In this document: piece by piece, positions 1 through 31,169 of the stretch
Layout of the letters: the number at the start of each line of letters is the position of its first letter
Position numbering within the stretch: the stretch's first letter is position 1
NCBI GenBank assembly: GCA_039714055.1
Contig: JBDLKB010000001.1
Location: 1-31,169 of the forward strand
Length of the DNA: 31,169 nucleotides
DNA from: Chloroflexota bacterium
GTDB lineage: Bacteria; Chloroflexota; Anaerolineae; Promineifilales; UBA4811
Direction: 5' to 3'
The notes under the pieces: model-generated
Databases searched by the model: none
What the model was told of the DNA's origin: nothing
The model's input: the letters and a program-made list of their open reading frames with translations, nothing else
Made by a program: the position numbers and the translations under genes

Positions 1-3000
1 CGAAATTCCGCCCGGGGATTGGATTCATTTTTCTCGACTGCGATCACTACCGATACATACACATTGGGGGCATAATCACTCGTAACCGGAATATGCAGCA
101 CATGGGTATTGCCTTCCATCTGGATCAATTCATAGCTCTTGATGTCCGCTCGTTCGATGGTAACCAATGCCGTCTGCGGCCCTTCAAATGGTGAAGGGAT
201 CAGAATCTCTGCAATTTCTCCCGGAACGTAACTATCCTTGTTGCTGATTAGGTTGACGCGGTTGTTATCCTCAATTCTCCAGCGCACCTTGCCTGGACCC
301 ATGGCCCAGAAGAAGGTGCTGCTGCGGATCGAACGCGAACTATCATCCACGCTTATGGCTTTCACCCGGTATGACCCAGCATCGGGAGCAGTCACCTGCA
401 CTGATGCTTCACCAAGATCATCGGTAACAGCCGACTTTCTCTCGATGAAAATCTCTTTCTGCTCCCAGGTCCAGCGGCCAAACCCTTGCTCATCACGCAC
501 GTATACTGACTCGCCTTCGATGCGATATAGTTCAACGGTGATTTCCCGTCCTTCAAGGCGACCATCATTAACCAACTGCTGTCCCGCCTTGGGCCACTCC
601 ACGGTGATGAGATCGATCTGGATTGGCTCGCCTGCCTGAGCGATTCGCTCAGAGGCCGCAACACCGACATAGTAATCACCTTTGTGAACCACCATCTGGC
701 TGCGACCCGATATTACGCTTCCATCAGGACCATAAACCATGACCTCGAAAGTCACAATTAGACTTCCGTCCTTTTCAACTGCTTCCGCAATCTCATCCAG
801 GGGGCTATCGAGAAGGAACATCCCTTGTGCATCGGTCCTTCCTTTGCCCCCAGCTATGGTGGTCTTCTCTGCCTGAGGCTCTCCCCACCACGATCTATAC
901 ATAATCCAGGGGTCATCGACTTCATCATAGCTGTAATTTCCTGGACCATCGAAAGAATAGGGCGAAGCTATCAGAGCCCATTCCAGTTCGGCGTCGCTCA
1001 CAGGGCTGCCAAAGAAGGTCTGGACCTGGGTAGCCCATTTGCTCGACTCACCTACGGTAATCTCATCCATGGATGGGGTCACTTTGACCTCAAACTCTGG
1101 TGGTCGGTATGCCGCAACCATAAAGGTACTCATCCCGTAGCTCTTGTAACGATCTTTGGATATTTCAATCATGTATCGCCCTAGAGGAGCGTCCTCCGCA
1201 AGGATCAACTCACCACTAAAGGCGTCATTGTCATTGAGCGTCACTAACTCATTGAATACATCATTGTATTCCGGGTCCTTTATCGTCACTTGTATCTGTC
1301 TCTGCTTGAGAGGATGATACCGGGCATCATCCTCCATCTTAACCAGCCCGCGGTAGTAAACAGTTTGATCTGGGCGGTATATAGGCCTGTCGGTATAAAT
1401 ATGCGCCCTCTCGACCATCGAGTAATCACCCGATGCAAAGCCAAAATCCCAGGGAGATAAACCTTGATCCCACCACTGAGAGGCCATGGAGAAGCGGTCA
1501 CCATCCTCATCAGACAATACCCATAGTTCACTCTTGTATCTTGGTACAGACTCTAGCAAAGCGACGCCGTCCTGATCAGTGAATAAAGTTTGCCGCTCCA
1601 CCCCGCTAGTAATAAGCTTTAACTCCAGTCCAGATACGGGCTGCCCTGACTGAAGGTCAGTTGCCCAGACCAAGAGCTGATCTTCCGTCCACTTGAGAGT
1701 GAGATTGGTCTTGGTCACCACCAACAAGTGATGATTATAACCCCAGTAGTAATTGATATTGTTGATCTCTGGAGAATAGGATGACAGGAAATACAAGCCT
1801 GGCTCCAAGGCTCCCCCATCTTCCAGCAAGTTTATGTTGACTATCTCAGTGGAATTGGGCACCCTCTCGACCGGCATACTCCACTCGCGTATCAGCGAAC
1901 CGACAGCCGGAGTGTATCTTTCCCATTCAGCCTCTACCTTGAAATACTCATCCGCAGTCAGCCGATATAGCTTGAAATCGATCCCAGATATATTACGATA
2001 CACCACCTGCAGCCTGGCAGGCTCGTAGGCATCGTATGTATTCACCAAACCGGAGGTGATCAATCTCAATTCAGGATCATAATCTCTGGTGGTGAATGTG
2101 ACATCCAGTGCATCAGGCGTCTCGTTTCCGTAAGCATCCTTGATACCGGGTTCGATTTTCACCTGATATTCTGTAGCGGGGAGAAAGTCAAAGTGTATCC
2201 AGAAACTATCGTCCCAGCGGCTGAACCAGGTGGATACTTCCGTGGCGGTAATGGCAGGAGTGATGCTGACATGCTCCATTACGGTAGATGGAACAATATC
2301 AGTGTTGAACTGAATTTTGAATCCACGATGCTGCGGATGTACTCTGGTCTCACCATCCCTGGGGTCAGTAGACAATATCCGCGGCAGAGGTACGGTATTG
2401 AAATGCCAGGAATACTCTTCTTCCATGCCTGCGCCGCCTGAAGATGAAGTCAATCCCGGCTCAATCTTCACAGTGTACATTTCATCGAATGCAAGATCGC
2501 CTTCCGGCTCAAATGCAACTTGGGCGCCATCTGTAGTTATCCTGCCCGGCACCTGGGTGCCGCTGCTATCAGTAACTCTGATCTTCTCCCGAGCAGAGTT
2601 GAGATCCACCGGCTGGTTAAAAGTAATCGAGATTGGATCGGCGATTGGAACCTGCTGTGCATTCACAGACGGTACATGCCAGGTAACAACGGGAGGACTA
2701 GTGGTAAAACTCCAGGAATGATCCTCGGGGAGAATCCCTCCGGTGAGATCCTTGAATCCTGCAGGTACACTAGCAGTTATGCGCGTGCCCCCAGGGAAAT
2801 TCCCGTCGGGGACGAACTCATAGATGGAGGTGTTGATCCACTCGCCCTTGCCTTTGATGGATGGATCCAGGGTCAACGGATGAGGAAAGTTTGCCTGGTC
2901 GTTCAAAGTTGCCAAAGGAACCACCGGTCGGTTAAAAATCACAATTATGTGACTGTCAGGTTCCACGCCGCTTGATCCTTCTGGGGGAGACACTTGAGCT

Positions 3001-3455
3001 ACCTGGAGAAAACCGACAGTGTTAAAGTCAAAGCTGTAATCGCGAAGAGCGGCACCAGTTGCAGCAGTGGCGTCGCTTGTCAACGATACCTGGTATTGCC
3101 CAGCACGAGGTAGGCTTTTATCAGGGATGAACTTTAATTGCTGATCGTCACTCCATTGAAATGAACCGGCTACCTTTGGCTCAATAGAGAAGGAGGATTC
3201 AACTGCTCTTCTATCCATTGGCTGATTGAACACCAGTACAATACTGGCATCGGTGGCTAGCTCTGCACCGGGCTCCGGGGACCTGTCAATGACCATAGCG
3301 GGGGCAATGACATCTTGGACCCACGAGGTGGGTGTTGGGATAGAAGTTTCAGTAGTTGGTTCGGGTGTGGCTGGAGTGGGAGTTTCCTTCGCCTTGCAAC
3401 CAACCAGCAACAATGTAACCAGAACAACGATCAAGAACAATCGATATTTCAACAT
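1..3455 (-). CDS. Bacterial alpha-2-macroglobulin family lipoprotein with four N-terminal Ig-like (Big_5-type) domains; 3'-truncated by the window edge (>1151 aa)
   Basis: Translated by hand; absent from the ORF track because it has no stop in the window. ATG at 3455 follows GGGAGG. The N-terminus MLKYRLFLIVVLVTLLLVGC is a signal peptide with lipobox, followed by a TPTPATPEPT linker and four ~100-aa repeats of the type 'V..SP..G....D..I.V.FNQP...F.T'. The MG2 motif IYTDRPIYRPDQTVYYRG (~1400-1347) and PNVYVSVV (~68-45) are in the same frame, and the track lists no ORF terminating in this frame. Confidence 0.93.
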   Translation of the reverse strand, partial: MLKYRLFLIVVLVTLLLVGCKAKETPTPATPEPTTETSIPTPTSWVQDVIAPAMVIDRSPEPGAELATDASIVLVFNQPMDRRAVESSFSIEPKVAGSFQWSDDQQLKFIPDKSLPRAGQYQVSLTSDATAATGAALRDYSFDFNTVGFLQVAQVSPPEGSSGVEPDSHIIVIFNRPVVPLATLNDQANFPHPLTLDPSIKGKGEWINTSIYEFVPDGNFPGGTRITASVPAGFKDLTGGILPEDHSWSFTTSPPVVTWHVPSVNAQQVPIADPISITFNQPVDLNSAREKIRVTDSSGTQVPGRITTDGAQVAFEPEGDLAFDEMYTVKIEPGLTSSSGGAGMEEEYSWHFNTVPLPRILSTDPRDGETRVHPQHRGFKIQFNTDIVPSTVMEHVSITPAITATEVSTWFSRWDDSFWIHFDFLPATEYQVKIEPGIKDAYGNETPDALDVTFTTRDYDPELRLITSGLVNTYDAYEPARLQVVYRNISGIDFKLYRLTADEYFKVEAEWERYTPAVGSLIREWSMPVERVPNSTEIVNINLLEDGGALEPGLYFLSSYSPEINNINYYWGYNHHLLVVTKTNLTLKWTEDQLLVWATDLQSGQPVSGLELKLITSGVERQTLFTDQDGVALLESVPRYKSELWVLSDEDGDRFSMASQWWDQGLSPWDFGFASGDYSMVERAHIYTDRPIYRPDQTVYYRGLVKMEDDARYHPLKQRQIQVTIKDPEYNDVFNELVTLNDNDAFSGELILAEDAPLGRYMIEISKDRYKSYGMSTFMVAAYRPPEFEVKVTPSMDEITVGESSKWATQVQTFFGSPVSDAELEWALIASPYSFDGPGNYSYDEVDDPWIMYRSWWGEPQAEKTTIAGGKGRTDAQGMFLLDSPLDEIAEAVEKDGSLIVTFEVMVYGPDGSVISGRSQMVVHKGDYYVGVAASERIAQAGEPIQIDLITVEWPKAGQQLVNDGRLEGREITVELYRIEGESVYVRDEQGFGRWTWEQKEIFIERKSAVTDDLGEASVQVTAPDAGSYRVKAISVDDSSRSIRSSTFFWAMGPGKVRWRIEDNNRVNLISNKDSYVPGEIAEILIPSPFEGPQTALVTIERADIKSYELIQMEGNTHVLHIPVTSDYAPNVYVSVVIAVEKNESNPRAEF

Positions 3456-3625
3456 AATACCGCCTCCCTGAATAAGCATGCGACAGCAATCATCTGAGCT
3501 GCAAGAGCCAGCTCGTATATTATGACGATGTATCAGGAAAATAGGTTCCGCAGTTCACAGTGAATCTATGTTATATGATACACTGACCATGCGGCGCTTG
3601 CGATTCCTCACCTATTTGTTAAACT

Positions 3626-5781: not shown

Positions 5782-7872
5782 ATGCACAATATCTTCTATC
5801 CAAAGAGTATTGCAATAATTGGAGTATCATCCAAACCAACCAACCTGGGGCGCAATATCGTTGCCAATCTGATTGAATTCGGATTCGATGGCATCGTTTA
5901 CGCTGTTGGTCCCTCCGGTGGAACGATTGAGACTCGGCGTATCTACCGGTCTGTCACCGACATACCTGATCATGTTGACCTGGCAGTGATTCTTACACCC
6001 GCCAAGATTGTTCCCGGTCTGTTGGAGGAATGCGGGGAAAAGGGAATAAAGCGAGTGGTGGTAGAGACTGCCGGCTTTCGTGAATATGGCGAAGCGGGCA
6101 AGGAACTAGAACAACAGATGACTCGAAATGCAGCCAAGTACGACATGCGCTTTGTCGGTCCCAACTGCATTGGAGTGATGAATATGGAAAACGGTCTATG
6201 CGTGCCGTTCCCCCGACTGAAGCGCTTTGTCAAACGCGGCGATGTTTCAATCGTCTCCCAAAGTGGTGGCGTTGCCATGAGCGCGCTAAACCTCATGGCG
6301 AACGAAGGAATAGGCCTGAACAAGTTCATTTCTGTGGGCAATATGCTCAATATCGATGCGGAAGATGTGATCGAGTACTTGATAGAGGATGAAGGTACGC
6401 GCCAGATCTTTCTTTACCTGGAAAGCATGCGGAACGGGCGAAGACTGATGGAGATAGCAAAGCGTTCGCCCAAGCCCATACTGGCGTTCAAAGCCAATAT
6501 CGGTCACTTGAGCCAATCCATCGCCTCTTCTCATACGGCTTCGCTTTCTAGCGACGACAGTGTGGTGGACGCAGCATTTAAACAATCCGACATCATCCGG
6601 GTTCACGATGCCACCAGTTTGGCAAACAATCTCAAGGTGCTCAAGCTGCCCCCTATGAAAGGACGTCGCCTAGCGATCATCTCCCGTTCAGGCGGTCACG
6701 CGGTGATCGCCGCTGACGCATGCGAGCTTGTTGGATTTGATTTAGCCGACTTTCCTGAGCCTTTCCTCCGTGAGGTTGAGAAGCATTTCCGCGCATCGGT
6801 GATACGTCTGACCAACCCTTTGGACCTTGGTGACCTATTCGACCTCAATGTATATGCCCAGATAGTAGAGCGAACACTGAAAGTGGAAAACGTTGATGGC
6901 ATAGTGTTCCTCCACACTTCTTTTGCAGAGATAGAAGGAGACGCTACAAGGCAGCTTCTTGAGCGGTTGATGCAACTGGGAAGCCAATACGCCAAGCCGG
7001 TGGCTTTTTACCTCTCATCCTCAGCCCAAGAGGTAAATCTCTTGAAGCAGGAGTATGACTTCCCAATATTCACTCAAGTTGTAGAGACGATTCGCGCGCT
7101 TGAGATGAGCTATGACCACCATTGCTTTCACGAACGAGTTGCTCAGACTGATCAAGTTGTGGATCTTGAGGTGGGAAAAGTTGAAGCCAGCGAAATCGTT
7201 GCTTCAGCAGCAGCCCAGAAGCGCGACTTGTTGCTTTCAGAAGCAGTCTCACTGTTGGATCATTACGGAATTCCTACTGTGCCTGACCGCATAGCAGAGT
7301 CATCCGATCAAGCGGTGGAAATGGCTGAGGAGCTTGGCTATCCTGTTGTCATCAAGGTCATTGCTGATCAACTATCTCACAAATCAGATGTCGGTGGGGT
7401 GCAACTGAACCTACGCAATGGATCGGCTGTGGCACAAGCATATGATGAGATGATGTCACGATTGGCAGCACAGTATCCTGACGTACCAATCGATGGCGTG
7501 CTAGTACAGCCAATGATCAGTGGCGGTCGCGAGCTTATCGTAGGTGGACGGCAAGATGAGAGTTTTGGCCCCATCGTTCTGGTGGGAATGGGTGGAATCT
7601 ATGTTGAGATCCTTGAGGAAGTAGCGATCCGCGTCGCTCCCATCACTCAACAGGATGCAGAGGAGATGATCAATGAACTCAAAGCAGCTCCGATTTTGAA
7701 AGGGGCGCGAGGACATCGCAAGTCTGACATCCAGGCAATTATAGATACTCTGCTCCGAATCTCGCAGCTCTTGGTTGACTTTCCACAGGTGCAAGAGATT
7801 GACATCAACCCTCTGGTGGCATTCCCAGAGGGAGAAGGATGCCTGGCACTGGACGCTCGGGTGCTGCTGTAA
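5782..7872 (+). CDS. ADP-forming acetate/acyl-CoA ligase (single-chain alpha-beta, CoA-binding + ATP-grasp)
   Basis: CoA-binding N-terminus (PKSIAIIGVS), GPNCIG, SQSGG, phospho-His motif SHT, NPLDL, and ATP-grasp motifs HKSDVGGV and EIDINPL. No GNAT domain. Confidence 0.92.
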   Translation: MHNIFYPKSIAIIGVSSKPTNLGRNIVANLIEFGFDGIVYAVGPSGGTIETRRIYRSVTDIPDHVDLAVILTPAKIVPGLLEECGEKGIKRVVVETAGFREYGEAGKELEQQMTRNAAKYDMRFVGPNCIGVMNMENGLCVPFPRLKRFVKRGDVSIVSQSGGVAMSALNLMANEGIGLNKFISVGNMLNIDAEDVIEYLIEDEGTRQIFLYLESMRNGRRLMEIAKRSPKPILAFKANIGHLSQSIASSHTASLSSDDSVVDAAFKQSDIIRVHDATSLANNLKVLKLPPMKGRRLAIISRSGGHAVIAADACELVGFDLADFPEPFLREVEKHFRASVIRLTNPLDLGDLFDLNVYAQIVERTLKVENVDGIVFLHTSFAEIEGDATRQLLERLMQLGSQYAKPVAFYLSSSAQEVNLLKQEYDFPIFTQVVETIRALEMSYDHHCFHERVAQTDQVVDLEVGKVEASEIVASAAAQKRDLLLSEAVSLLDHYGIPTVPDRIAESSDQAVEMAEELGYPVVIKVIADQLSHKSDVGGVQLNLRNGSAVAQAYDEMMSRLAAQYPDVPIDGVLVQPMISGGRELIVGGRQDESFGPIVLVGMGGIYVEILEEVAIRVAPITQQDAEEMINELKAAPILKGARGHRKSDIQAIIDTLLRISQLLVDFPQVQEIDINPLVAFPEGEGCLALDARVLL

Positions 7873-7880
7873 TAATGGAA

Positions 7881-8864
7881 CTAGAACTCGAGTTCCTTAA
7901 TGAAACCAAAACTTCCGGTGATGCCGCCGGTGTGCCAGAACAACACAGTTTGATCCCGGCTAAAGCCTCCTGAGCGGATCAGATCGATCATGCCTGATGC
8001 GGCTTTGCCGGTATATACCGGATCCAGGATTATGCCCTCATAGCGGCCAAATAACTGCATTGCTTCACGTTCTTTGTCACCGATGACAGCGTATCCCCCA
8101 CCAACATAATTGTCGTTGGCAGCAATATCTCTGGGTTGGAACTGAAGATCGAGTCCAAGCAATTCAGTTGTAGAATTGCAGATTCCAGTTACTACCTCTG
8201 CTAGCTTTTGTCTTTCGAGGTGCACACTTATTCCTAATATCGCGGTATCAGAATCGGTTGCTTTGGCTCCAACAACAAGCCCGGCATGGGTGCCACCACT
8301 AGATGATGCGAACATAATTGAGTCGAAATTAATCTGTCGCTCATCCATCTGCTGCGCAAGCTCCTCCCACGCTGCTACATAACCCGCAGCCCCCATGGCA
8401 TTCGACCCGCCATAGGGGACCAGGTAGGGCCGTGCGCCTGAATGCCAGAGGTCCTTTGCAGTATCCTGCATCAACTTCTCCATGTCTCGCCCTGAAGCCC
8501 AGACTATTTCAGCACCCAAGATACGATCTAGCAGCAGGTTGCCAGTGACAGCACCCTCTGGAGGATCTGCATTGAGCACCAGCACCGCTTTGAGCCCGTA
8601 TTTGGCTGCTGCGGCAGCCGTCTGGCGACAATGATTGGACTGAATAGCTCCCCCTGTGATCAATGTGTCCGCTCTACCCCGCAGGGCTTCCGCCACCAGG
8701 TACTCAAGTTTGCGTGCTTTGTTGCCACCTGTGGCAAGCCCGGTCTGGTCGTCACGCTTAATGTAGATGCGGGGACCTCCCAGATGATCAGACAAGCGAT
8801 CAAGTGACTCTAGGGGTGTGGGGAGATGAGCAATCGGTACTCGATCAATTGAGTTGGTGAGCAT
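7881..8864 (-). CDS. dcyD: D-cysteine desulfhydrase family PLP enzyme
   Basis: Motifs PTPLE, KRDD and GGNKARKLEYL (PLP Lys), QSNH, SSSGGT. DPVYTGKA and HTGG carry Thr at the positions where true ACC deaminases have Glu and Leu. Confidence 0.85.
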   Translation of the reverse strand: MLTNSIDRVPIAHLPTPLESLDRLSDHLGGPRIYIKRDDQTGLATGGNKARKLEYLVAEALRGRADTLITGGAIQSNHCRQTAAAAAKYGLKAVLVLNADPPEGAVTGNLLLDRILGAEIVWASGRDMEKLMQDTAKDLWHSGARPYLVPYGGSNAMGAAGYVAAWEELAQQMDERQINFDSIMFASSSGGTHAGLVVGAKATDSDTAILGISVHLERQKLAEVVTGICNSTTELLGLDLQFQPRDIAANDNYVGGGYAVIGDKEREAMQLFGRYEGIILDPVYTGKAASGMIDLIRSGGFSRDQTVLFWHTGGITGSFGFIKELEF

Positions 8865-8908: not shown

Positions 8909-10741
8909 TTATTTTCTTCGTTCAAACAGAACCAACACTGCAAACCAGGGAAGCACCAACATGCGGCGCCAACGCCACGGTTCGCGCATCAAACGATATA
9001 GCCACTCCAAGCCCACTCTTTGCATCCATTGTGGAGCACGCAATATGATACCGCTGATGAAATCAAAAGCTCCCCCAACTCCCATAGCCATTGAAACATC
9101 GAGCCGGTGCAGATTGCGAGCTATCCATTTATCTTGCTTTGGTGCACCATAAGCTACGAAAAGTATGTCAGCTTTGGATTGATTAATTCTTTCAACCAGA
9201 TCATCTTCTTCATCTTGAGAAGGGCTCCCGGCATAGGTGCCAGCGATCTCCAGGTCGGGATATCTTTGAATCAGTTCAGCAGCCGTTTTCTTGGCAACAC
9301 CAGGTGCCGCTCCCAGTAGATATATGCGCCATCCCTGGCGGGCGGCAGCTTCCGCAATCAGAGGTACCCCATCTGAACCGGTGATCCTTTCCGGTAGAGG
9401 TCTCCCTTTCCAGCGTGCTGCTGCCATCAATCCTATTCCATCCGCTACGGACAGAGTAGCCCGCTCTAAAATTAGGCGGAAAATGGAATCCTTGCGTGCT
9501 TCCATGATGAATTCTGGATTGGCTGTTGCAAGCTGCGCTTTCTGCCCGTTATCGATCCAGGATTGAATCTGATCCATCAACTCACTGTATGTCACCTTGT
9601 GGATGGGAACTCCCAACACACGCAAATGTGGGGTTGGAGGTTTGGCGATTTTGCGCTCTTGTACATCCTCCGGATATTTGCCTTCAAGAACATTCTCCGC
9701 CTCTTGAAGCACTCGTGACACTTGGATAGAGCGCATGCAGGTACGTTCGGGGCATCCAGCAGGAGAGCCCAAACCAAACTCGGTATATATGCAAGGACTG
9801 CACAGACTTCCTGCACGAATCACCCGCAAATTCGATTCTTGTACAAGTGGTTGCCAAGCCTGGTGATTGGAAGGCCCAAATATCGCCACAGTGGGAGTGT
9901 TCACTGTGGAAGCGACATGCAATACTCCAGAGTCAGCTCCGATCAGCAAGTCGCAACGAGATAGTACCGCTGCCAGTTGAGGCAATGTAGTCTTGTCCGT
10001 CAAGTTGATCACATTGCCATCGATTGCTTCCGCCAACTCGTTCCCTCCATCCATGGGCGCCCCAACAACTACGATCATTGCGCGGTAGGCTAATGCCCTC
10101 CCCAGCTCTACGAACTTGGTTAATTCCCAGCGGCGCGCCCTACTGTATGCTCCAGTGCCGGGGTGGATGGCGATCACAGGTAATTCGCCTGACGGAATCC
10201 ATTCGTCAGCTTGAGCATGGTCCTCATCCGAAACTGCGAGCAATGTTTGCGGAACGTCATCCGCTGCGGTAATGTTCTGACTCACTCCTGCTGCTGACAC
10301 CAAATCTAACCAATATTGACTCTCGTGCTTGACTCCAAATCCACCGTCGGGCACCTTGTGGGTCAGGAACCAGCCACGTCCGTTATCAAGCCCGATAGAC
10401 TTTTGTGCCCGAACACTCGACACCATCAACGCATGCTTCAAAGCCCCAGAGCGTAGTGAAAGATGATGAAACAGGATTACCGAGTCATATTTTCGAGAAC
10501 GAAGAATTAGTCCGGTTTTGATTGCTTGGAACCAGCGACTTGCAGTTGAATGAGTTGACGATTTTTCAACCGTAACGATTTCATCAAACAACGTTTGTGG
10601 GTATGCCTCTGCGGTTGAGGGAATGGTCAGTAGATCGATCTCGGCATTGGGGAACTGCTGACGCAGTGCTTTGATAGCTGGGGTCACCAGTATCAGGTCG
10701 CCGATGTCAGCTAGCTTGATTGCCAATATCTTGGAGGTCAC
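8909..10741 (-). CDS. Fusion protein: glycosyltransferase family 9 (heptosyltransferase-like) + WecB/TagA/CpsF (GT26) glycosyltransferase
   Basis: N-terminal ~350 aa carry IGDLILVTPAIKALR..FP.AEI, HPG, DSGVLHVA and CSPC...CPERTCM (GT9). C-terminal ~240 aa carry TANPEF, DGIG, YLLGA, GAPKQDKW, GVGGAFD and RAPQWMQRVGLEWLYRL..EP.RWRR (TagA/WecG). One continuous ORF; GTG start overlaps the upstream stop. Confidence 0.9.
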   Translation of the reverse strand: MTSKILAIKLADIGDLILVTPAIKALRQQFPNAEIDLLTIPSTAEAYPQTLFDEIVTVEKSSTHSTASRWFQAIKTGLILRSRKYDSVILFHHLSLRSGALKHALMVSSVRAQKSIGLDNGRGWFLTHKVPDGGFGVKHESQYWLDLVSAAGVSQNITAADDVPQTLLAVSDEDHAQADEWIPSGELPVIAIHPGTGAYSRARRWELTKFVELGRALAYRAMIVVVGAPMDGGNELAEAIDGNVINLTDKTTLPQLAAVLSRCDLLIGADSGVLHVASTVNTPTVAIFGPSNHQAWQPLVQESNLRVIRAGSLCSPCIYTEFGLGSPAGCPERTCMRSIQVSRVLQEAENVLEGKYPEDVQERKIAKPPTPHLRVLGVPIHKVTYSELMDQIQSWIDNGQKAQLATANPEFIMEARKDSIFRLILERATLSVADGIGLMAAARWKGRPLPERITGSDGVPLIAEAAARQGWRIYLLGAAPGVAKKTAAELIQRYPDLEIAGTYAGSPSQDEEDDLVERINQSKADILFVAYGAPKQDKWIARNLHRLDVSMAMGVGGAFDFISGIILRAPQWMQRVGLEWLYRLMREPWRWRRMLVLPWFAVLVLFERRK

Positions 10742-25003: not shown

Positions 25004-25038
25004 AGGGGGAAGAGACAAAGCTCTTCCCCCTTTCTTTT
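25004..25038 (+). terminator. Intrinsic terminator between the convergent PBP and PLP-enzyme genes
   Basis: Perfect 11-bp stem AGGGGGAAGAG/CTCTTCCCCCT, 6-nt loop ACAAAG, then TTCTTTT. It may also work weakly on the minus strand. Confidence 0.85.
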
Positions 25039-25039
25039 G

Positions 25040-26506
25040 CTACTTTAAAAGACCAGTCATTTCATTGAATTGGGTTACCAATTCGTCAATTTCGTCTATT
25101 TGAGAGTGGACACCGTCCCAGTAATCTGGCTGGTACCACTGAGCTTGAATCTCTTCGTAGGTCTTACCCTGCTGTTCTACCCAGGTGTAATACTTGAGAT
25201 TATGGATACGTTTCTGATCCCAATAACCCAATTCTTCAACGTAATCGACGGTGCAGCCCAGGAGATGTTGATGGTAATCTGCTGCCGCATCCATCGCATT
25301 GTATTCACCATGCTCCTGCTCCAATTCTCGCAGGCGGCTTTGGTACAGTTCCATTGAATCGGTTAGTACCGTGAGAACGATGTCGTTCTCACCCAACTCA
25401 TACCAGCGGGCGAATTTGATAGATGAAAGCACATTGGCAATACCAGAGATACCAAGAAGATCAAGTTGCTCAATTATCTCCGGAGGTACGTTTTGGGTTT
25501 GGAGGTAATGTTTACCTGCTGGTTCGTTGAATAAACGCACCAGGCTCATGCACGCTTCGTCGTCGATCGCCATCACCATGTCAGTGTTGCGCATGTTGTG
25601 GATCCAAGGTATGTGCTTGTCTCCAATGCCTTCAATCCGATGGCCGCCAAAGCCGTTGATTAGCAAGGTCGGGCACTGAAGCGCTTCGCTGGCGGCTACC
25701 TTTGACGTTGGGAACATCTCTTTCATATAGTCGCCGCAGCCGATTGTGCCTGCCGAGCCCGTAGTTAATACCACGCCTCGATAGTTGTCATTTGGTCCCA
25801 TCTCCTGCTCAAGCACCTCGCTCATAGCATGTCCGGTGACATCATAATGCCAGAGGTGATTTCCAAACTCGTCGAACTGATTAAAGATGACGATCTTGTC
25901 GCCACGTTCGTTTGTCAGCTCCCAGCACTTGTCAAAGATCTCTTTTACATTGCTCTCACAGCCAGGTGTGGCGATGATCTCGCCTGACACCTTTTCCAAC
26001 CATTCGAACCTTTCTCGACTCATCTCTTCAGGCAAAATGGCAACTGATTCGCATCCCAAAAGTTTTGCATCGTATGCGCCACCACGGCAGTAGTTCCCAG
26101 TTGAGGGCCACACCGCTTTCTGGTTCTTGGGATCGAATTGGCCCGTAACCAGGCGAGGCACCAAACAACCAAAGGTTGCCCCTACTTTGTGCGCGCCTGT
26201 GGGAAACCATTTCCCGACCAGGCAGATGATGCGGGCATCAACTCCGGTTAATGACTTGGGAAGTTCGACATAGTTCACTCCGCCAAACCCTCCACCAGAG
26301 GATACCGGCTCGTTCTTCCAGGTGATGCGGAACAAATTGGGTGAAACAATATCCCACAACCCGATTGAATCAAGTTGTTCCTTGATCTTGTCGGGGATTA
26401 GCTCTGGATTGCGCTGTTGGGCAAAAGTGGGAATGATGATATTCCGTTCACGTGCTACCTCAACCGCGCTTTCCAGCCCCTTTGAGTTGATAGTCAAGTC
26501 AATCAT
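25040..26506 (-). CDS. Uncharacterised fold-type II PLP-dependent enzyme (488 aa; cysteine synthase/threonine dehydratase superfamily)
   Basis: Candidate PLP-Lys motif FPTGAHKVG, PSTGNYCRGG, phosphate loop TGSAGT, IEGIG and LGISGIAN. Strong SD AAGGAG. Confidence 0.82.
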   Translation of the reverse strand: MIDLTINSKGLESAVEVARERNIIIPTFAQQRNPELIPDKIKEQLDSIGLWDIVSPNLFRITWKNEPVSSGGGFGGVNYVELPKSLTGVDARIICLVGKWFPTGAHKVGATFGCLVPRLVTGQFDPKNQKAVWPSTGNYCRGGAYDAKLLGCESVAILPEEMSRERFEWLEKVSGEIIATPGCESNVKEIFDKCWELTNERGDKIVIFNQFDEFGNHLWHYDVTGHAMSEVLEQEMGPNDNYRGVVLTTGSAGTIGCGDYMKEMFPTSKVAASEALQCPTLLINGFGGHRIEGIGDKHIPWIHNMRNTDMVMAIDDEACMSLVRLFNEPAGKHYLQTQNVPPEIIEQLDLLGISGIANVLSSIKFARWYELGENDIVLTVLTDSMELYQSRLRELEQEHGEYNAMDAAADYHQHLLGCTVDYVEELGYWDQKRIHNLKYYTWVEQQGKTYEEIQAQWYQPDYWDGVHSQIDEIDELVTQFNEMTGLLK

Positions 26507-26533
26507 ATGTTACAGTCTCCTTAATGTGAAATT

Positions 26534-27343
26534 TCACGCGAGCGCCAACATGGCAAGCATCGCGCTGTATGCTTCGATAATGTCTTCCCCTGTCCACTCC
26601 ACTGTTCTGCCATCTACTCGATTGGCTCCGGGCAGCGCTGACGCTCCTTCGGCCTGTACACTGGTTACAAACTGAATAGTGATGGTAACTGGAGGGGCAA
26701 ACACAAGTGCTTTTGGAATTGGTCCGTTTACCGCCTGGGATGCAGCTTCTTTGATTTGACCCATTACTTGCTCCACTGGCAGACTCTTTACCGCAGTTCG
26801 GCTCAAAGACTCTTTGACCTCAACCGTGTTTAGCCTATCTCCCAGTAAAGCCTTAGCTTCAGAGGCAACAGCCTGGTCACCAGTTACCAATACCACAGGC
26901 ACTCCATAGTGTCCGGCAATTGCAGCGTTTAATCCAGTCTCCCCTATGGTGCGCCCATTGGCTTGTAGTGAGTACACTTGTGAGCCAGACCAAGTGTGGT
27001 CAAGTACCGCGTGTGCTGTACCTGCCATGGCATGGTAGCCGATGAACATGGCTCTATCAATGTCTCTGTCCACACCTGCCATCATACCCAACTGCTTGGG
27101 ATACCCACTGATCAACTCGGCACGCTTGTCTAGCTTCTCCAAGAGAATATTCCTCATGCCTCCGTGTGAATCGTTTATCAGCACATACGCAGCGCCCCCG
27201 TTGTATGCTCCCTCAATCGCCGCATTGACTTCAGCGGTCATGATCTCCCTGAATCGATTGAAAGAAGGTTTGTTATGATCTACATCATCCCAGCATGACA
27301 CACCGGTGATCCCTTCCATATCAACAGATATAAACACTCGCAT
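26534..27343 (-). CDS. M55 family D-aminopeptidase (DppA-like Zn hydrolase)
   Basis: Zn ligand motifs SVDMEG, DSHG, GYH and HT; also GETGLNA and TGD. Confidence 0.92.
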   Translation of the reverse strand: MRVFISVDMEGITGVSCWDDVDHNKPSFNRFREIMTAEVNAAIEGAYNGGAAYVLINDSHGGMRNILLEKLDKRAELISGYPKQLGMMAGVDRDIDRAMFIGYHAMAGTAHAVLDHTWSGSQVYSLQANGRTIGETGLNAAIAGHYGVPVVLVTGDQAVASEAKALLGDRLNTVEVKESLSRTAVKSLPVEQVMGQIKEAASQAVNGPIPKALVFAPPVTITIQFVTSVQAEGASALPGANRVDGRTVEWTGEDIIEAYSAMLAMLALA

Positions 27344-28617
27344 CAGACACCCCTTTCCAGAGTACTTACTACTTGAACAACCTCATCGATACTTGGCTTT
27401 ATGGTGAACAGATCACCTTTAGCACGCATGGCAGCGTTGATATCCTTCAAGCCGCTGCCTGTTACCAGCACCAAGACACTCTCTTTCTCTTCAATAAATC
27501 CTTGCCGCAACGCTGATTCCAGACCCGCATAGGCGGCAGCCGCTGCGGGCTCTGCAAATACCCCAGTTGCTCGAGCAAGTATGGGAATCGCATTCAGAAT
27601 CATCTCGTCGCTCACACGGACAAAAGCACCTCCGGTCTGGTTCACCGCTCGCATCGCCTTGATCCGGTCACGAGGAAGACCAGCGGAGATACTATCAGCT
27701 ACAGTTTCAGCAACAATGGGAGCCTTGGTGAGAACATCCTCTTGTTGGCTCCATGCCTGCCACAGGAAATCAGATCCAGCAGCCTGAACCCCGATAATGC
27801 GCGGCATCTGGTCGATCCACCCCAGTTGAAGTAGATCGGTAAAGCCCTTGTGAACCCCGCCGATGATGCAGCCATCACCTACAGGTACAACCACTACATC
27901 CGGAACTTGCCACGTGCCGCCCTGCGTCTGCCCTAGTTGTTGGCAAACCTCATAGACCACCGTCTTTTTTCCCTCGGTCATGTATGGGTTGAAAGCTGTG
28001 TTTCGGTTGTACCAGCCAAATTTGTCACAAGCTTCAAGGCACAATTCGAAAGCAGCATCGTAGCTAGCTTCAACCAGCATCACTGTGCTGCCATAGACCA
28101 ACAACTGAGCGATCTTGGCTTTAGGAGCTGATGCGGGAACAAAGATGACGGTGGGTTTTTCAACACTGGCAGCAATACAAGCAAGTGCAGCCGCCGCGTT
28201 TCCCGTGCTGGCGGTGGCAATGACCCCCGCACCTGTTTCCTCAGCTTTTACCAATGCTAGCGCTGACGCCCTGTCCTTGAAACTAGCTGAAGGTTGTCTG
28301 CTGTCATCTTTTATCAATACTTTTCTAATGCCCAACGCGTTTGCTAACCTCGTTGAGTTGTAGAGAGGGGTATCTCCTACCATAAGCGGCGGGAATTCAT
28401 CGATTGCGACCGGGAGCAGATCACGATAACGCCAGATTCCGCCTCCCGAACCGACCGGCGGAATCGGATTCTCTTCCACTCTATGCGCAATCAATTCATA
28501 GTCATACTTGACATCAAGGATGCCATCGTTGCCGTGATTGGGGCATACATACTGAACCTCATCTGCGCCATACATCTCCCCGCAGATGACACATTCAAGA
28601 CCTAATACATGTTCCAT
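27343..28617 (-). CDS. Threonine synthase-like PLP enzyme with N-terminal Zn ribbon
   Basis: CVIC...CPNH ribbon, GDTPL, SASFKDR (PLP Lys), ASTGNA, PVGDG, EPAAA and TGSGLKD. TGATG overlap with the dppA-like gene. Confidence 0.85.
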   Translation of the reverse strand: MEHVLGLECVICGEMYGADEVQYVCPNHGNDGILDVKYDYELIAHRVEENPIPPVGSGGGIWRYRDLLPVAIDEFPPLMVGDTPLYNSTRLANALGIRKVLIKDDSRQPSASFKDRASALALVKAEETGAGVIATASTGNAAAALACIAASVEKPTVIFVPASAPKAKIAQLLVYGSTVMLVEASYDAAFELCLEACDKFGWYNRNTAFNPYMTEGKKTVVYEVCQQLGQTQGGTWQVPDVVVVPVGDGCIIGGVHKGFTDLLQLGWIDQMPRIIGVQAAGSDFLWQAWSQQEDVLTKAPIVAETVADSISAGLPRDRIKAMRAVNQTGGAFVRVSDEMILNAIPILARATGVFAEPAAAAAYAGLESALRQGFIEEKESVLVLVTGSGLKDINAAMRAKGDLFTIKPSIDEVVQVVSTLERGV

Positions 28618-28659
28618 TTACGCTCCGAACCTTTATCTGACCGTGATTGGGTGTTGATC

Positions 28660-31169
28660 TCAATTGATGAGACCTGGAAACGCCTGGCGTGCAGCCTGGA
28701 GGATCCAGTTCATCTCCAATGCCATCGCTAATGAGAGCTCCCCTGCAAAGGATTCATGTAATTGAGAGTCGGTCACATTGAATACATGGTCCAAGGATAG
28801 AGTAAAGTTGTTACACTTGAGCTGTCTACCTTGATTAGACATGGTCAATTGATATTCGTTGCCATCGTCTCGGCACCATATTGTGTCACCTTCCACCAAA
28901 TAGGCATTGTCTGTCTCTGCTTCGAATGTTTCACGCAGGAGAAACAACCTAGGCTTGTCCTTGAATGGCTGACCTTGATGAACGCAGAATGTGGTGCAGT
29001 TGCCGCAAGCGTTGCACAGATCATCCAAGTGCAATATCTGGCGCTCTTGTTCAATCGACACTGTTTCCTGCTGTCTGATCTCAATCCCAGTTCCGTTGGC
29101 AACAACAACAGGAACCTCATACCTTCCGGTTTTAATGAAATAGACTTGATTGGCGCGGTTGGGGCACACTTCAACACATTTGTCGCACAGGGAAGAACAC
29201 TGCAAGCATCGCGCGGCTTCCTCTCGCGCCTGTTCATCGCTGTAGGATGTCTCCACCAGGTCAAAGTTCTGGCGTTGGGCTGGAGGTAATAATGCTGGCT
29301 CGAACGCCGGTTGTTTGCGGGAACGGGCCAGTTTGACTTTTCGGACCTGCTCCGTGGTCATGGACACTGCTGGAAAAGTAGGAGCGACAAAGGTTTTATC
29401 GATCTGCGCCATTATCGTCTCGGCTGCTCGACGACCGTCAGCACACGCCTCAACGATGGTTGCTGGTCCTCTGACCGCGTCTCCACCCGCCAAGATACAG
29501 ACATGCCCCGCAGTACCGTCATCTTTAACCTCGATGGCACCCCAAGGATGCAGGGTCACATTGCTGCCATCCAGGAAACTGATTTCAGGTCGCTGTCCAA
29601 TGGCAATGATTACAGAATCAGCAGGCATCTCGAATTCGGTACCTGGAACTGGTATCGGACGACGTCTGCCATCTGGATCGGGTGGACCCAATCTGTTGCG
29701 AATTACTTTAAGAGCGACAACCTTCCCCTCATCCAGTACTACCCGTTGAGGGCTGAGCAGCTCTTCAATCTGATTGCCTTCATCTAATAACCCGTCAAGT
29801 TCCTCGTCAGTGGCGGGCATCTCTGCTTGGGTTCGACGGTAAACAACGGTTACTGGTTTGCCAATCAACCTCTGTGCCACGCGAGCCGCATCCATGGCAG
29901 TGTTGCCGCCGCCGATAACCAGAACATTGTCTCCTAAAGGCAGAGCATCTTTGTTGGCAGCGCGCCGCAATAGATCCATGGCGGAATACACTCCGAGTCC
30001 CTCTTCTCCAGGCATACCTAGAGTTGCATCCTTCTGATAGCCGGTAGCCACATACACTGCATCATAACCATCATCAAGCAGCGATTCGGGAGGACCATCA
30101 ACCGAATGTCCCAGCCGCAGATCGACCCCGAGGTCGATGATACGATCGATATCTTGCTCAACGATATTTGAAGGCAGACGGAAAACGGGGGCAATTGCCA
30201 ACATTCCACCCGCTTTGTTGCGGGATTCAAAAATGGTAACCGATACTCCGCTCAATGTCAGGTAGTATGCCGCCGCCAGTCCAGAAGGACCGCTGCCGAT
30301 TACAGCTACCTTGTGCTTGACACCATGGCTTCCGGCGTTTTGCTCTAGCGATACCTTACCATTCTCGACTGCGAATCGCTTCAGTGCCCTGATCTGCACA
30401 GGTTCATCATAATTGTTCCGTGTGCATCGTTCCTGACACAAGTGGGTACAGACATACCCAGTGACACCAGGAAGCGGATTCCGCGACAAGATCACTTGTA
30501 GTGCGGCATCATAGTCGCCATTCTGAATGTACCAGGCGTATTCTGGGATATCCTGGCGAACAGCGCATTGCTCAACACAGGGAGCGGCTATGCAGTCATA
30601 CTTTTCCAAAGATGCTGACACCTTTGGTAGTGGATAAGGATGGTATGTCTTGTGGTAACGACGGTCCCTTCGCGCCTCGTATGCAGCTAGCTGCAATTTC
30701 TCCTGCCTGTCTAGCGAGAAAGCAGCAAGATCGTTAGCATCGGCTTCTACCATTGCCATTTGCAGTTCCTGCAATGCCTGCAAGGAACGAGAATAGCCAC
30801 CAGGTTTCAGTAGATCTGACGCCATGGTGACAGGCAATGCACCGCAGGCGATGATGTCGCTTACGTTCAGTGCATCAGCACCTCCAGAGTAAGACACATT
30901 GAGATCGCCGTTGAAGACATCAACCAGCAAGTGGAACAGGTTCAAGGTGATGGGATAAAGCGCACGACCGGACATATACATCTCATCACCAGGCAGCATC
31001 TTGCGATGATTGCTCATTGCCAACGTGTTACTCAATTTGACTCCAAAGGCAAGCCCGGATGATTCCGCCTTCTTCTTTAGGGATCGAATCATCTCTAAAG
31101 CACGATCCAGTTGCAGGTCATGCTCAAAGACCGAGTCTGGAATACTAATGCTGCCGTAACCCAAATCAT
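28660..31169 (-). CDS. ygfK: YgfK-like Fe-S flavoprotein oxidoreductase (often annotated 'putative selenate reductase'); 5'-truncated by the window edge
   Basis: End of a DHODH-like barrel (FEHDL, FGVKLSNTL, MYMSGRALYP), CIAAPCVEQC, NPLPGVTGYVC.HLC and GltD-like FAD/NAD(P)H domains (GSGPSGL, VIGGGNTAMD). C-terminal CLQC..LCDKCVEVCPNRAN and CNACGNCTTFC. The frame stays open to the window edge. Confidence 0.88.
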   Translation of the reverse strand, partial: DLGYGSISIPDSVFEHDLQLDRALEMIRSLKKKAESSGLAFGVKLSNTLAMSNHRKMLPGDEMYMSGRALYPITLNLFHLLVDVFNGDLNVSYSGGADALNVSDIIACGALPVTMASDLLKPGGYSRSLQALQELQMAMVEADANDLAAFSLDRQEKLQLAAYEARRDRRYHKTYHPYPLPKVSASLEKYDCIAAPCVEQCAVRQDIPEYAWYIQNGDYDAALQVILSRNPLPGVTGYVCTHLCQERCTRNNYDEPVQIRALKRFAVENGKVSLEQNAGSHGVKHKVAVIGSGPSGLAAAYYLTLSGVSVTIFESRNKAGGMLAIAPVFRLPSNIVEQDIDRIIDLGVDLRLGHSVDGPPESLLDDGYDAVYVATGYQKDATLGMPGEEGLGVYSAMDLLRRAANKDALPLGDNVLVIGGGNTAMDAARVAQRLIGKPVTVVYRRTQAEMPATDEELDGLLDEGNQIEELLSPQRVVLDEGKVVALKVIRNRLGPPDPDGRRRPIPVPGTEFEMPADSVIIAIGQRPEISFLDGSNVTLHPWGAIEVKDDGTAGHVCILAGGDAVRGPATIVEACADGRRAAETIMAQIDKTFVAPTFPAVSMTTEQVRKVKLARSRKQPAFEPALLPPAQRQNFDLVETSYSDEQAREEAARCLQCSSLCDKCVEVCPNRANQVYFIKTGRYEVPVVVANGTGIEIRQQETVSIEQERQILHLDDLCNACGNCTTFCVHQGQPFKDKPRLFLLRETFEAETDNAYLVEGDTIWCRDDGNEYQLTMSNQGRQLKCNNFTLSLDHVFNVTDSQLHESFAGELSLAMALEMNWILQAARQAFPGLIN

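Follow-up and report, generated by a model that had tools for sequence, protein, structure and literature searches.

The 31,169-nucleotide stretch analysed here (the window) is the entire contig C1 of a marine Anaerolineae (Chloroflexota) metagenome-assembled genome (MAG; 1.38 Mb, 247 contigs, 69% complete), and its last four genes, all on the minus strand, encode a YgfK-type reductase, a threonine-synthase-like (ThrC-like) enzyme, an M55 metallopeptidase and a 488-amino-acid enzyme (PLP488). The ThrC-like protein and PLP488 are both fold-type II pyridoxal 5'-phosphate (PLP) enzymes. These four genes probably form the distal end of a variant 2,8-dioxopurine (anaerobic reductive urate/purine) operon in which the PLP pair takes over the step of the lyase YgeX. 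An earlier sequence-only reading had proposed the tail of a purine cluster with a different set of late-step enzymes, and this proposal is supported by the genes found upstream, by the recurrence of the two PLP families and by the failure to find a canonical ygeX. The nearest relatives of the MAG are Anaerolineae and Ardenticatenales MAGs (Chloroflexota), and two marine metagenome runs contain DNA near-identical to the window. The features concerned are as follows.

28660..31169, minus strand: ygfK (open reading frame 28660-31167, 835 amino acids, open at the contig end), Fe-S flavoprotein of the 2,8-dioxopurine reductase type
27343..28617, minus strand: ThrC-like fold-type II PLP enzyme, 424 amino acids, with an N-terminal Cys/His ribbon and the SFKDR lysine
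26534..27343, minus strand: M55 (DppA-like) metallopeptidase, 269 amino acids, PF04951
25040..26506, minus strand: PLP488, CysK/CBS-fold PLP core, 488 amino acids, with the TGAHK lysine K107 and N- and C-terminal extensions
25004..25031, no strand assigned: G+C-rich hairpin of 11 pairs, between the convergent PBP1 gene (plus strand) and the PLP488 gene (minus strand)

The coordinates and junctions of the four genes given in the sequence-only reading were borne out by the open reading frame (ORF) listing and by direct reading of the sequence. The ygfK stop lies 42 nt from the ATG of the ThrC-like gene, which is preceded by GGAG. The stop codon of the ThrC-like gene overlaps the M55 start codon by a single base (TGATG), indicating translational coupling, and the 27 nt between the M55 and PLP488 genes contain AAGGAG. 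The terminator placed at the end of the gene set held up in part: the hairpin is present, but a T-run follows it on the plus strand (PBP1 side) only, the operon-strand sequence after the stem being GTAATTGT. The hairpin is therefore a good terminator for PBP1 and merely a possible one for the operon. Shuffled sequence gave terminator-like sites at least as often as the region itself.

The YgfK part within the window matched positions 259-990 of the TIGR03315 model with 649.7 bits, a score that falls under the full-length cut-off (835.3) only because about 258 residues lie beyond the contig; about 220 residues, a gap of roughly 660 nt, are unassembled. Full-length relatives scored 927.7 and 994.5 bits against the same model. 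Domain analysis revealed Fer4_20 and Pyr_redox_2 together with two CxxCxxC-type motifs in the C-terminal part, and the YgfK set of a DPD-type 4Fe-4S domain, an FAD/NAD(P) oxidoreductase and a C-terminal dicluster ferredoxin motif was found. The protein has 38% identity to E. coli YgfK over 790 amino acids. The N-terminus of ygfK (residues 1 to about 46) was located at the end of contig C68 (C68:6347-6460), where it matches TIGR03315 positions 1-38 and has 50% identity to residues 1-38 of E. coli YgfK. An exact 39-nt pattern from the window end had no match in metagenome contigs that would close the gap, and a scan of metagenome loci with the window YgfK yielded nothing but GltD-like oxidoreductases, aligned over the middle domain with 35-40% identity, and no ygfK neighbourhoods.

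Upstream of ygfK, C68 carries a carbamate kinase (48% identity to E. coli YqeA) and, immediately ahead of the ygfK start, a BMP-family ABC transporter made up of a binding protein, an ATPase and two permeases. The reverse-complemented start of contig C36 and the start of C68 share an exact 62-nt overlap, and the ORF of a second carbamoyltransferase spans this join, with C36 contributing a further carbamoyltransferase and a GntR regulator. The overlap, the ORF across the join and the ygfK start on C68 together indicate that the operon is continuous over three contigs. Its order is GntR regulator, carbamoyltransferase (clade C), carbamoyltransferase (clade D), carbamate kinase, BMP-type ABC importer (four genes), ygfK, ThrC-like gene, M55 gene and PLP488. 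A YgfK-type reductase, a carbamoyltransferase and a carbamate kinase are thus found together in the C36/C68/C1 reconstruction. Where the sequence-only reading suggested looking for purine genes upstream, the carbamate kinase (the YqeA equivalent) and two carbamoyltransferases in the YgeW role were found along with the GntR regulator and the BMP transporter; ssnA and hyuA were not.

In the reductive urate pathway, urate is converted to 2,8-dioxopurine by XdhD or XdhAC and YgfK reduces the ring; ring opening by SsnA and HyuA comes next, then the production of carbamoyl phosphate and ATP by YgeW with YqeA, and after YgeY has acted YgeX generates pyruvate (10.1101/2025.05.19.654654; 10.1101/2025.04.24.650524). 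The E. coli/Clostridium cluster for this pathway (xdhD-ygfM or xdhAC, ygfK, ssnA, hyuA, ygeW, yqeA, ygeY, ygeX; 10.1101/2025.05.19.654654, 10.1101/2025.04.24.650524) and the window operon have in common a YgfK orthologue, a carbamate kinase and carbamoyltransferases in the YgeW role, as well as the logic of ring reduction, two ring openings, two ureido cleavages, ATP via carbamoyl phosphate and a final PLP step. The window operon differs in having no YgeX and two other fold-type II PLP enzymes, in carbamoyltransferases that belong to clades without YgeW, in an ABC importer in place of proton symporters, in a ygfK gene followed by the ThrC-like gene instead of ssnA, and in the inserted M55 gene. 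Neither 10.1101/2025.05.19.654654 nor 10.1101/2025.04.24.650524 mentions threonine-synthase-like or cysteine-synthase-like enzymes. One of the two took the general PF00291 family as the marker of YgeX in gene neighbourhoods, by which the ThrC-like protein and PLP488 would be counted as YgeX. A literature search found no paper describing the pair.

A neighbourhood survey was made of the 80 best PLP488-homologue loci, from 80 genomes of many phyla, with ORFs clustered, clusters annotated and genes counted within ±10 kb. It revealed a recurrent module of fixed order: GntR regulator, two carbamoyltransferases, carbamate kinase, an optional BMP transporter, the ThrC-like gene, a variable slot and PLP488, followed by a D-hydantoinase (HyuA type, above cut-off) or by xanthine dehydrogenase (XDH) subunits, YgfK, SsnA, YgeY and adenine deaminase. 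ThrC-like genes were counted at 55 loci, carbamate kinase at 46, carbamoyltransferase at 44, HyuA at 23, XDH at 13, SsnA at 12, YgfK at 11, YgeY at 9 and adenine deaminase at 5, with YgeX at 0. The ThrC-like gene ends at most 2 kb upstream of PLP488 in 43 of the 62 loci with enough flanking sequence, and the SsnA, YgeY, HyuA and YgfK proteins of the related loci score above NCBIfam cut-offs, as do the XDH proteins above those of their families. Direct adjacency of ygfK and the ThrC-like gene was seen only in the window. Among five genomes with no ThrC-like gene at the PLP488 locus, four carry one elsewhere and none has YgeX.

The M55 protein matched PF04951 over its full length (333 bits) and scored 239.5 against the NCBIfam DppA equivalog (cut-off 430), so it belongs to the family, and equivalence to B. 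subtilis DppA is not supported. It occurs in the window and in only 3 of the 80 loci (L016, L020, L024), all close relatives with the gene in the identical slot; elsewhere the slot between the two PLP genes holds a glycosyltransferase family 2 (GT2) gene or a metallo-beta-lactamase (MBL) hydrolase, or is empty. The M55 gene is a clade-specific insert. The idea that all three families downstream of ygfK would recur with it thus stands for the two PLP families, which recur across phyla, and fails for M55.

For the phyletic pattern, 301 Chloroflexota genomes were sampled. ThrC-like orthologues (threshold at least 342 bits, clearly apart from housekeeping ThrC at 215-250 bits) were found in 43, PLP488-like genes in 44 and both in 35; the sampled genomes are related and not independent, so the survey figures are counts and not tests. 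The ThrC-like gene was present in 36 of the 39 genomes with SsnA over the cut-off, and all 8 YgfK-positive genomes have a PLP488-family gene, which lies within 10 kb wherever the two are on one contig. YgeX was over the cut-off in 10 of the 301, 4 of these being SsnA-positive, and no purine gene was found within ±10 kb of YgeX in the three genomes examined (G242, G258 and the SsnA-negative G130). A strict mutual exclusion of YgeX and the pair was considered and dropped, as five sampled genomes have both YgeX and PLP488.

The pair itself takes three forms. The first is PLP488 with the ThrC-like protein. In the second, a canonical-looking 345-amino-acid CysK is encoded directly upstream of the ThrC-like gene, near SsnA, YgeY, carbamate kinase, carbamoyltransferase and XdhD; this form was found in four genomes with SsnA present and with PLP488 and YgeX absent. 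The third consists of a PLP488 relative (45-50% identity) followed by a distant ThrC-like PALP protein of 456-460 amino acids and HyuA, with YgfK, carbamate kinase and XDH nearby. What stays constant is the pairing of a CysK-type with a ThrC-type enzyme, the ThrC-like partner being the more widely present of the two.

The ThrC-like protein scored 242 bits against PALP and 185.8 bits against TIGR00260 (thrC; cut-off 167.1), which places it in the threonine synthase family, and its best solved relatives are threonine synthases in the PDB (E 1e-45 to 1e-53). With ThrC (T. thermophilus, B. subtilis, M. tuberculosis and Aquifex structures) it shares the fold, the STGN loop and the conserved SFKDR lysine motif, and its N-terminal ribbon is as in the Chloroflexota housekeeping ThrC class. 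It differs from ThrC in being encoded in a catabolic cluster, on top of a canonical thrC, and in the replacement of R160 by M/T/L, N188 by an invariant D, S155 by G/A and T88 by A (T. thermophilus residues), found in 51 of 51 orthologues; the Arg that housekeeping ThrC of Chloroflexota has three residues earlier is also absent. We take these four T. thermophilus residues to be the ligands of the substrate phosphate (O-phosphohomoserine), an assignment for which no literature confirmation was found. If this assignment is right, the substrate-phosphate site of threonine synthase would be lost in the ThrC-like enzyme, and the invariant Asp at this site would fit a substrate with a cationic beta-amino leaving group. 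R205 and K217 are newly invariant and R316 is nearly so (46/51).

Three complete relatives additionally carry a canonical ThrC (297-301 bits), the ThrC-like gene there scoring about 177 bits. In two small complete relatives the ThrC-like gene is the best thrC match, and no other ThrC homologue was found in the 69%-complete MAG. Against the DpaL model NF006058 the ThrC-like protein scored 64 bits (cut-off 276), too low for DpaL membership, and the E. coli YgeX query matched the ThrC-like gene only (24% identity over 173 amino acids). The N-terminal Cys ribbon is intact in the window protein (CxxC...CxxH); its cysteines are gone in several orthologues (e.g., L060 and L073), so the ribbon is probably inessential for the shared function.

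PLP488 scored 50 bits against PALP, 91.2 against TIGR01139 (cysK; cut-off 350.95) and 35.7 against cysM (cut-off 413), and the NCBIfam scan gave no DpaL match. Its only PDB sequence matches are cysteine synthase and CBS (about 1e-14). An AlphaFold2 model (predicted local distance difference test, pLDDT, 95.3; predicted template modelling score, pTM, 0.94) has a core resembling CysK, CBS, beta-cyanoalanine synthase and O-ureidoserine synthase (Foldseek probability 1.0; template modelling score by target about 0.8-0.85; identity 20-26%). The PLP lysine K107 (TGAHK), the phosphate loop and CysK-type motifs (HxxxT, GISxG) are conserved. PLP488 shares the core fold with these enzymes and differs by its TGAHK-type lysine motif and by extensions of about 75 amino acids at the N-terminus and about 100 at the C-terminus; these (residues ~1-75 and ~390-488) are conserved and covered by no solved structure. 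Proteins 69-83% identical to PLP488 are encoded in at least 592 stretches of species-representative genomes, from Chloroflexota, Bipolaricaulota, Thermotogota, Halanaerobiales, Fidelibacterota, Acidobacteriota, Desulfobacterales and others, and the family comprises 357 clusters at 50% identity (E < 1e-30) with generic public names. An OrtB-like thiolase role was also considered for PLP488 and rejected, as there was no OrtB among the NCBIfam matches and the fold matches were CysK and CBS.

A maximum-likelihood tree of the carbamoyltransferases resolved four clades (A-D). Clade B holds E. coli YgeW and the carbamate-kinase-adjacent copy of most loci, and clade A a very divergent upstream copy; the two carbamoyltransferases of the window operon fall in clades C and D, together with few from Chloroflexota, Bipolaricaulota and Thermotogota. 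Clusters combined A+B (at least 19 loci), C+D (9), B+YgeY (11) or A+B+YgeY (3), and all clusters seen in full encode at least two ureido-cleaving enzymes, either a pair of carbamoyltransferases or a single one with YgeY, in keeping with the two ureido groups that 2,3-diureidopropionate carries. With both groups cleaved first, the PLP enzymes would act on diaminopropionate, the first intermediate with a free alpha-amine. The two-transferase variants suggest that both ureido groups are conserved as carbamoyl phosphate. A strict complementarity between YgeY and a second carbamoyltransferase was softened, since three loci have YgeY plus two carbamoyltransferases and the MAG has an unlinked YgeY-family gene. 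The arrangement resembles the arginine deiminase module (catabolic ornithine carbamoyltransferase plus carbamate kinase) in the phosphorolysis of ureido groups by enzymes of the ornithine carbamoyltransferase family followed by ATP formation by carbamate kinase; it differs in its tandem carbamoyltransferase paralogues, whose presumed substrates are 2,3-diureidopropionate and the mono-ureido product instead of citrulline.

Elsewhere in the MAG, a PucD-like XDH molybdenum subunit is encoded on C228 and more XDH-family genes on C198, C191 and C77. A DUF6909 gene (529 bits; C228:2-1189, locus L218) is directly upstream of the PucD-like subunit gene and coupled to it. The MAG also has an 8-oxoguanine deaminase adjoining an adenine deaminase, and the former is the best match to the SsnA model (147 bits); HyuA had no match. 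YgeX was found neither in the MAG nor in the 80 related loci nor in five further purine clusters. The view that the canonical late genes are replaced here is supported for ygeX, of which the MAG yielded none; a YgeY-family M20 hydrolase is present, unlinked, among glycosyltransferases. With the MAG 69% complete, the non-detection of SsnA, HyuA and YgeX does not show their absence.

On the reading of the operon as a variant of the reductive purine pathway, purine bases or nucleosides would be imported, and a xanthine-dehydrogenase-type enzyme and YgfK would dehydroxylate and reduce the ring. Amidohydrolases (SsnA and HyuA in the relatives) would then open both rings to give 2,3-diureidopropionate, the two carbamoyltransferases would phosphorolyse its two ureido groups, and carbamate kinase would convert the carbamoyl phosphate into ATP. 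Finally, the ThrC-like/PLP488 pair, replacing YgeX, would convert 2,3-diaminopropionate into pyruvate and ammonia; gene context points to diaminopropionate as the substrate and to catalysis by the pair. The pair resembles YgeX/DpaL (EC 4.3.1.15) in its fold-type II PLP enzymes, its terminal position in the pathway and its expected substrate, diaminopropionate, and differs in using two proteins for one and in its weak or missing match to the DpaL model. The ThrC-like protein is more likely the beta-eliminating lyase of the pair and hence the candidate 2,3-diaminopropionate lyase. PLP488, an obligate-looking partner, may act as a subunit or helper, or as a second, stereospecific lyase that takes the opposite enantiomer. 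We infer this division of labour, and likewise a yield of two ATP. A stricter version of the proposal is tentative and in our estimate has somewhat the lesser chance of being right: that the pair is a new two-enzyme last step, with two stereospecific diaminopropionate lyases or a lyase and an obligatory CysK-fold partner standing in for the D/L-bispecific YgeX, and with both ureido groups phosphorolysed to give two ATP per purine and not one.

Several points weigh against the variant-operon reading. YgeX alone suffices for the reaction, and the need for two enzymes is unexplained. PLP488 stands away from ThrC-like, carbamate kinase and carbamoyltransferase genes in about 30% of the well-flanked loci (L021-L033, L043, L049 and others). 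Four sampled genomes have YgeX alongside the pair, and G130, which has neither the ThrC-like gene nor SsnA, has it alongside PLP488 alone. No link joins the XDH genes of the MAG, which lie on other short contigs, to the operon, and the MAG, at 69% completeness, yielded neither SsnA nor HyuA. The ThrC phosphate ligands are presumed, with a numbering that fits the alignment within one residue, and the relatedness of the sampled genomes overstates the statistical weight of the survey.

An unlikely though serious alternative is that the pair belongs to the pathway and is not a simple replacement of YgeX: it might eliminate urea from 3-ureidoalanine (albizziin) by beta-elimination, or use diaminopropionate in a beta-replacement that yields serine or cysteine, the C3 unit then being assimilated and not burned. 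The core of PLP488 has the CysK/CBS/beta-cyanoalanine-synthase fold, whose members carry out beta-replacement, and O-ureidoserine synthase is among its structural matches. A canonical-looking cysteine synthase has been recruited beside the ThrC-like gene in one lineage, and the use of two enzymes hints at two chemical steps. However, the clusters seen in full already have two ureido-cleaving enzymes, which makes a urea-eliminating lyase redundant, the clusters are catabolic in character (carbamate kinase and transporter), and YgeX is the sole canonical step without a homologue in them.

We regard it as improbable that, in line with the second option of the sequence-only reading, YgfK and the genes downstream serve another N-heterocycle or ureide here (hydantoin, a dihydropyrimidine-like compound or a nucleoside-derived ureide) and not urate/purine. 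The failure to find SsnA and HyuA in this MAG would agree with such a role, as would the late module of Anaerolineaceae (transporter, two carbamoyltransferases, carbamate kinase, PLP pair and hydantoinase), which has no XDH, SsnA or YgfK within 10 kb, and the occurrence of a PLP488 relative with YgfK and HyuA in genomes where SsnA was not found. Those Anaerolineaceae genomes, however, encode an SsnA above the cut-off at another site, the pair is directly joined to SsnA, XDH and adenine deaminase in related loci, and the MAG, 69% complete as it is, encodes an 8-oxoguanine deaminase, an adenine deaminase and a PucD-like XDH subunit.

CysK-type enzymes are able to use selenide, and the pair might supply sulfur or selenium to a selenium-dependent molybdenum hydroxylase (through selenocysteine synthesis or breakdown, for example) instead of being catabolic. 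SelB is encoded a few genes downstream in the Anaerolineaceae loci and the canonical cluster is selenium-linked according to its family names. We consider this role very improbable: the genes around the pair are late-step genes (carbamoyltransferases, carbamate kinase, hydantoinase), XDH is often absent within 10 kb, E. coli-type clusters depend on the same cofactor and do without the pair, and the step without a homologue in the clusters is that of YgeX. That the two enzymes are an ordinary biosynthetic threonine synthase and cysteine synthase merely lying beside catabolic genes is hardly credible, even though the ThrC-like protein passes the TIGR00260 cut-off, has no other ThrC homologue beside it in the incomplete MAG and is the best thrC match of two small complete relatives, because the presumed ThrC phosphate-binding residues are replaced in 51/51 orthologues, complete relatives have a canonical ThrC elsewhere (297-301 bits against about 177), PLP488 reaches 91 bits against a cysK cut-off of 351, two CysK-like genes lie elsewhere in the MAG, and the position of the pair within purine clusters is conserved across phyla.

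The reductive urate pathway was resolved only in 2025, and for the E. coli and Clostridium enzyme set only. In environmental anaerobes of many phyla its last step is seemingly carried out by two enzymes that databases name threonine synthase and cysteine synthase. Metabolic reconstructions mis-assign the genes of the pair, and surveys of YgeX based on the general PLP-enzyme Pfam family would count the pair as YgeX. At stake is how purines are fermented in sediments and oceans, and with what gain of ATP. Both proteins are small, highly conserved and easy to express, which makes their function directly testable.

Some further observations concern the relatives of the pair. In two of the loci where PLP488 stands apart, it follows a tandem pair of 238-amino-acid genes. 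A distant PLP488 relative (42% identity, 466 amino acids; locus L136 and one Logan contig) is preceded by an overlapping gene of 500-504 amino acids, which encodes a PALP protein in one copy, and is followed by a radical SAM gene. The contig search for such distant relatives returned only contigs of 2-4 kb. Anaerolineaceae loci of the L061-L095 type (L063:11500-20400, L104:500-9300) have a conserved gene run after PLP488, comprising a 196-amino-acid protein, HyuA, proteins of 534, 198, 467 (NuoN/MrpD-like membrane protein) and 393 amino acids, and SelB. Four proteins of the run belong to no Pfam or NCBIfam family, and the run persists in G130. In some Chloroflexota purine clusters without YgfK, XdhD and the CysK-like gene are separated by one or two genes resembling FMN-dependent L-lactate dehydrogenase, whose products are possibly an alternative ring reductase. 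The genes lie at the following positions.

L097:13651-14715, strand not stated: L-lactate-dehydrogenase-like, YgfK-less cluster
L098:13493-14518, strand not stated: L-lactate-dehydrogenase-like, YgfK-less cluster
L100:6516-8580, strand not stated: L-lactate-dehydrogenase-like, YgfK-less cluster
L107:12792-13853, strand not stated: L-lactate-dehydrogenase-like, YgfK-less cluster

The rest of the window holds other genes of interest. An ADP-forming acetyl-CoA synthetase-type protein (5782-7872, plus strand; CoA_binding, Succ_CoA_lig and ATP-grasp_5 domains) would fit an ATP gain from pyruvate-derived acetyl-CoA. A third fold-type II PLP enzyme, unrelated to the operon, is encoded at 7881-8864 (minus strand) and belongs to the D-cysteine desulfhydrase/D-cysteate sulfo-lyase family, scoring 317.6 bits against TIGR01275 (above cut-off) and 390.8 bits against the CuyA model (below cut-off). 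A large bacterial alpha-2-macroglobulin-like protein (Big_5, MG2, bMG3 and A2M bait-region domains) occupies 3-3479 (minus strand) and runs off the contig start. Finally, the 610-amino-acid ORF at 8909-10741 (minus strand) is a fusion of a GT9 heptosyltransferase-like domain with a WecG/TagA glycosyltransferase domain.

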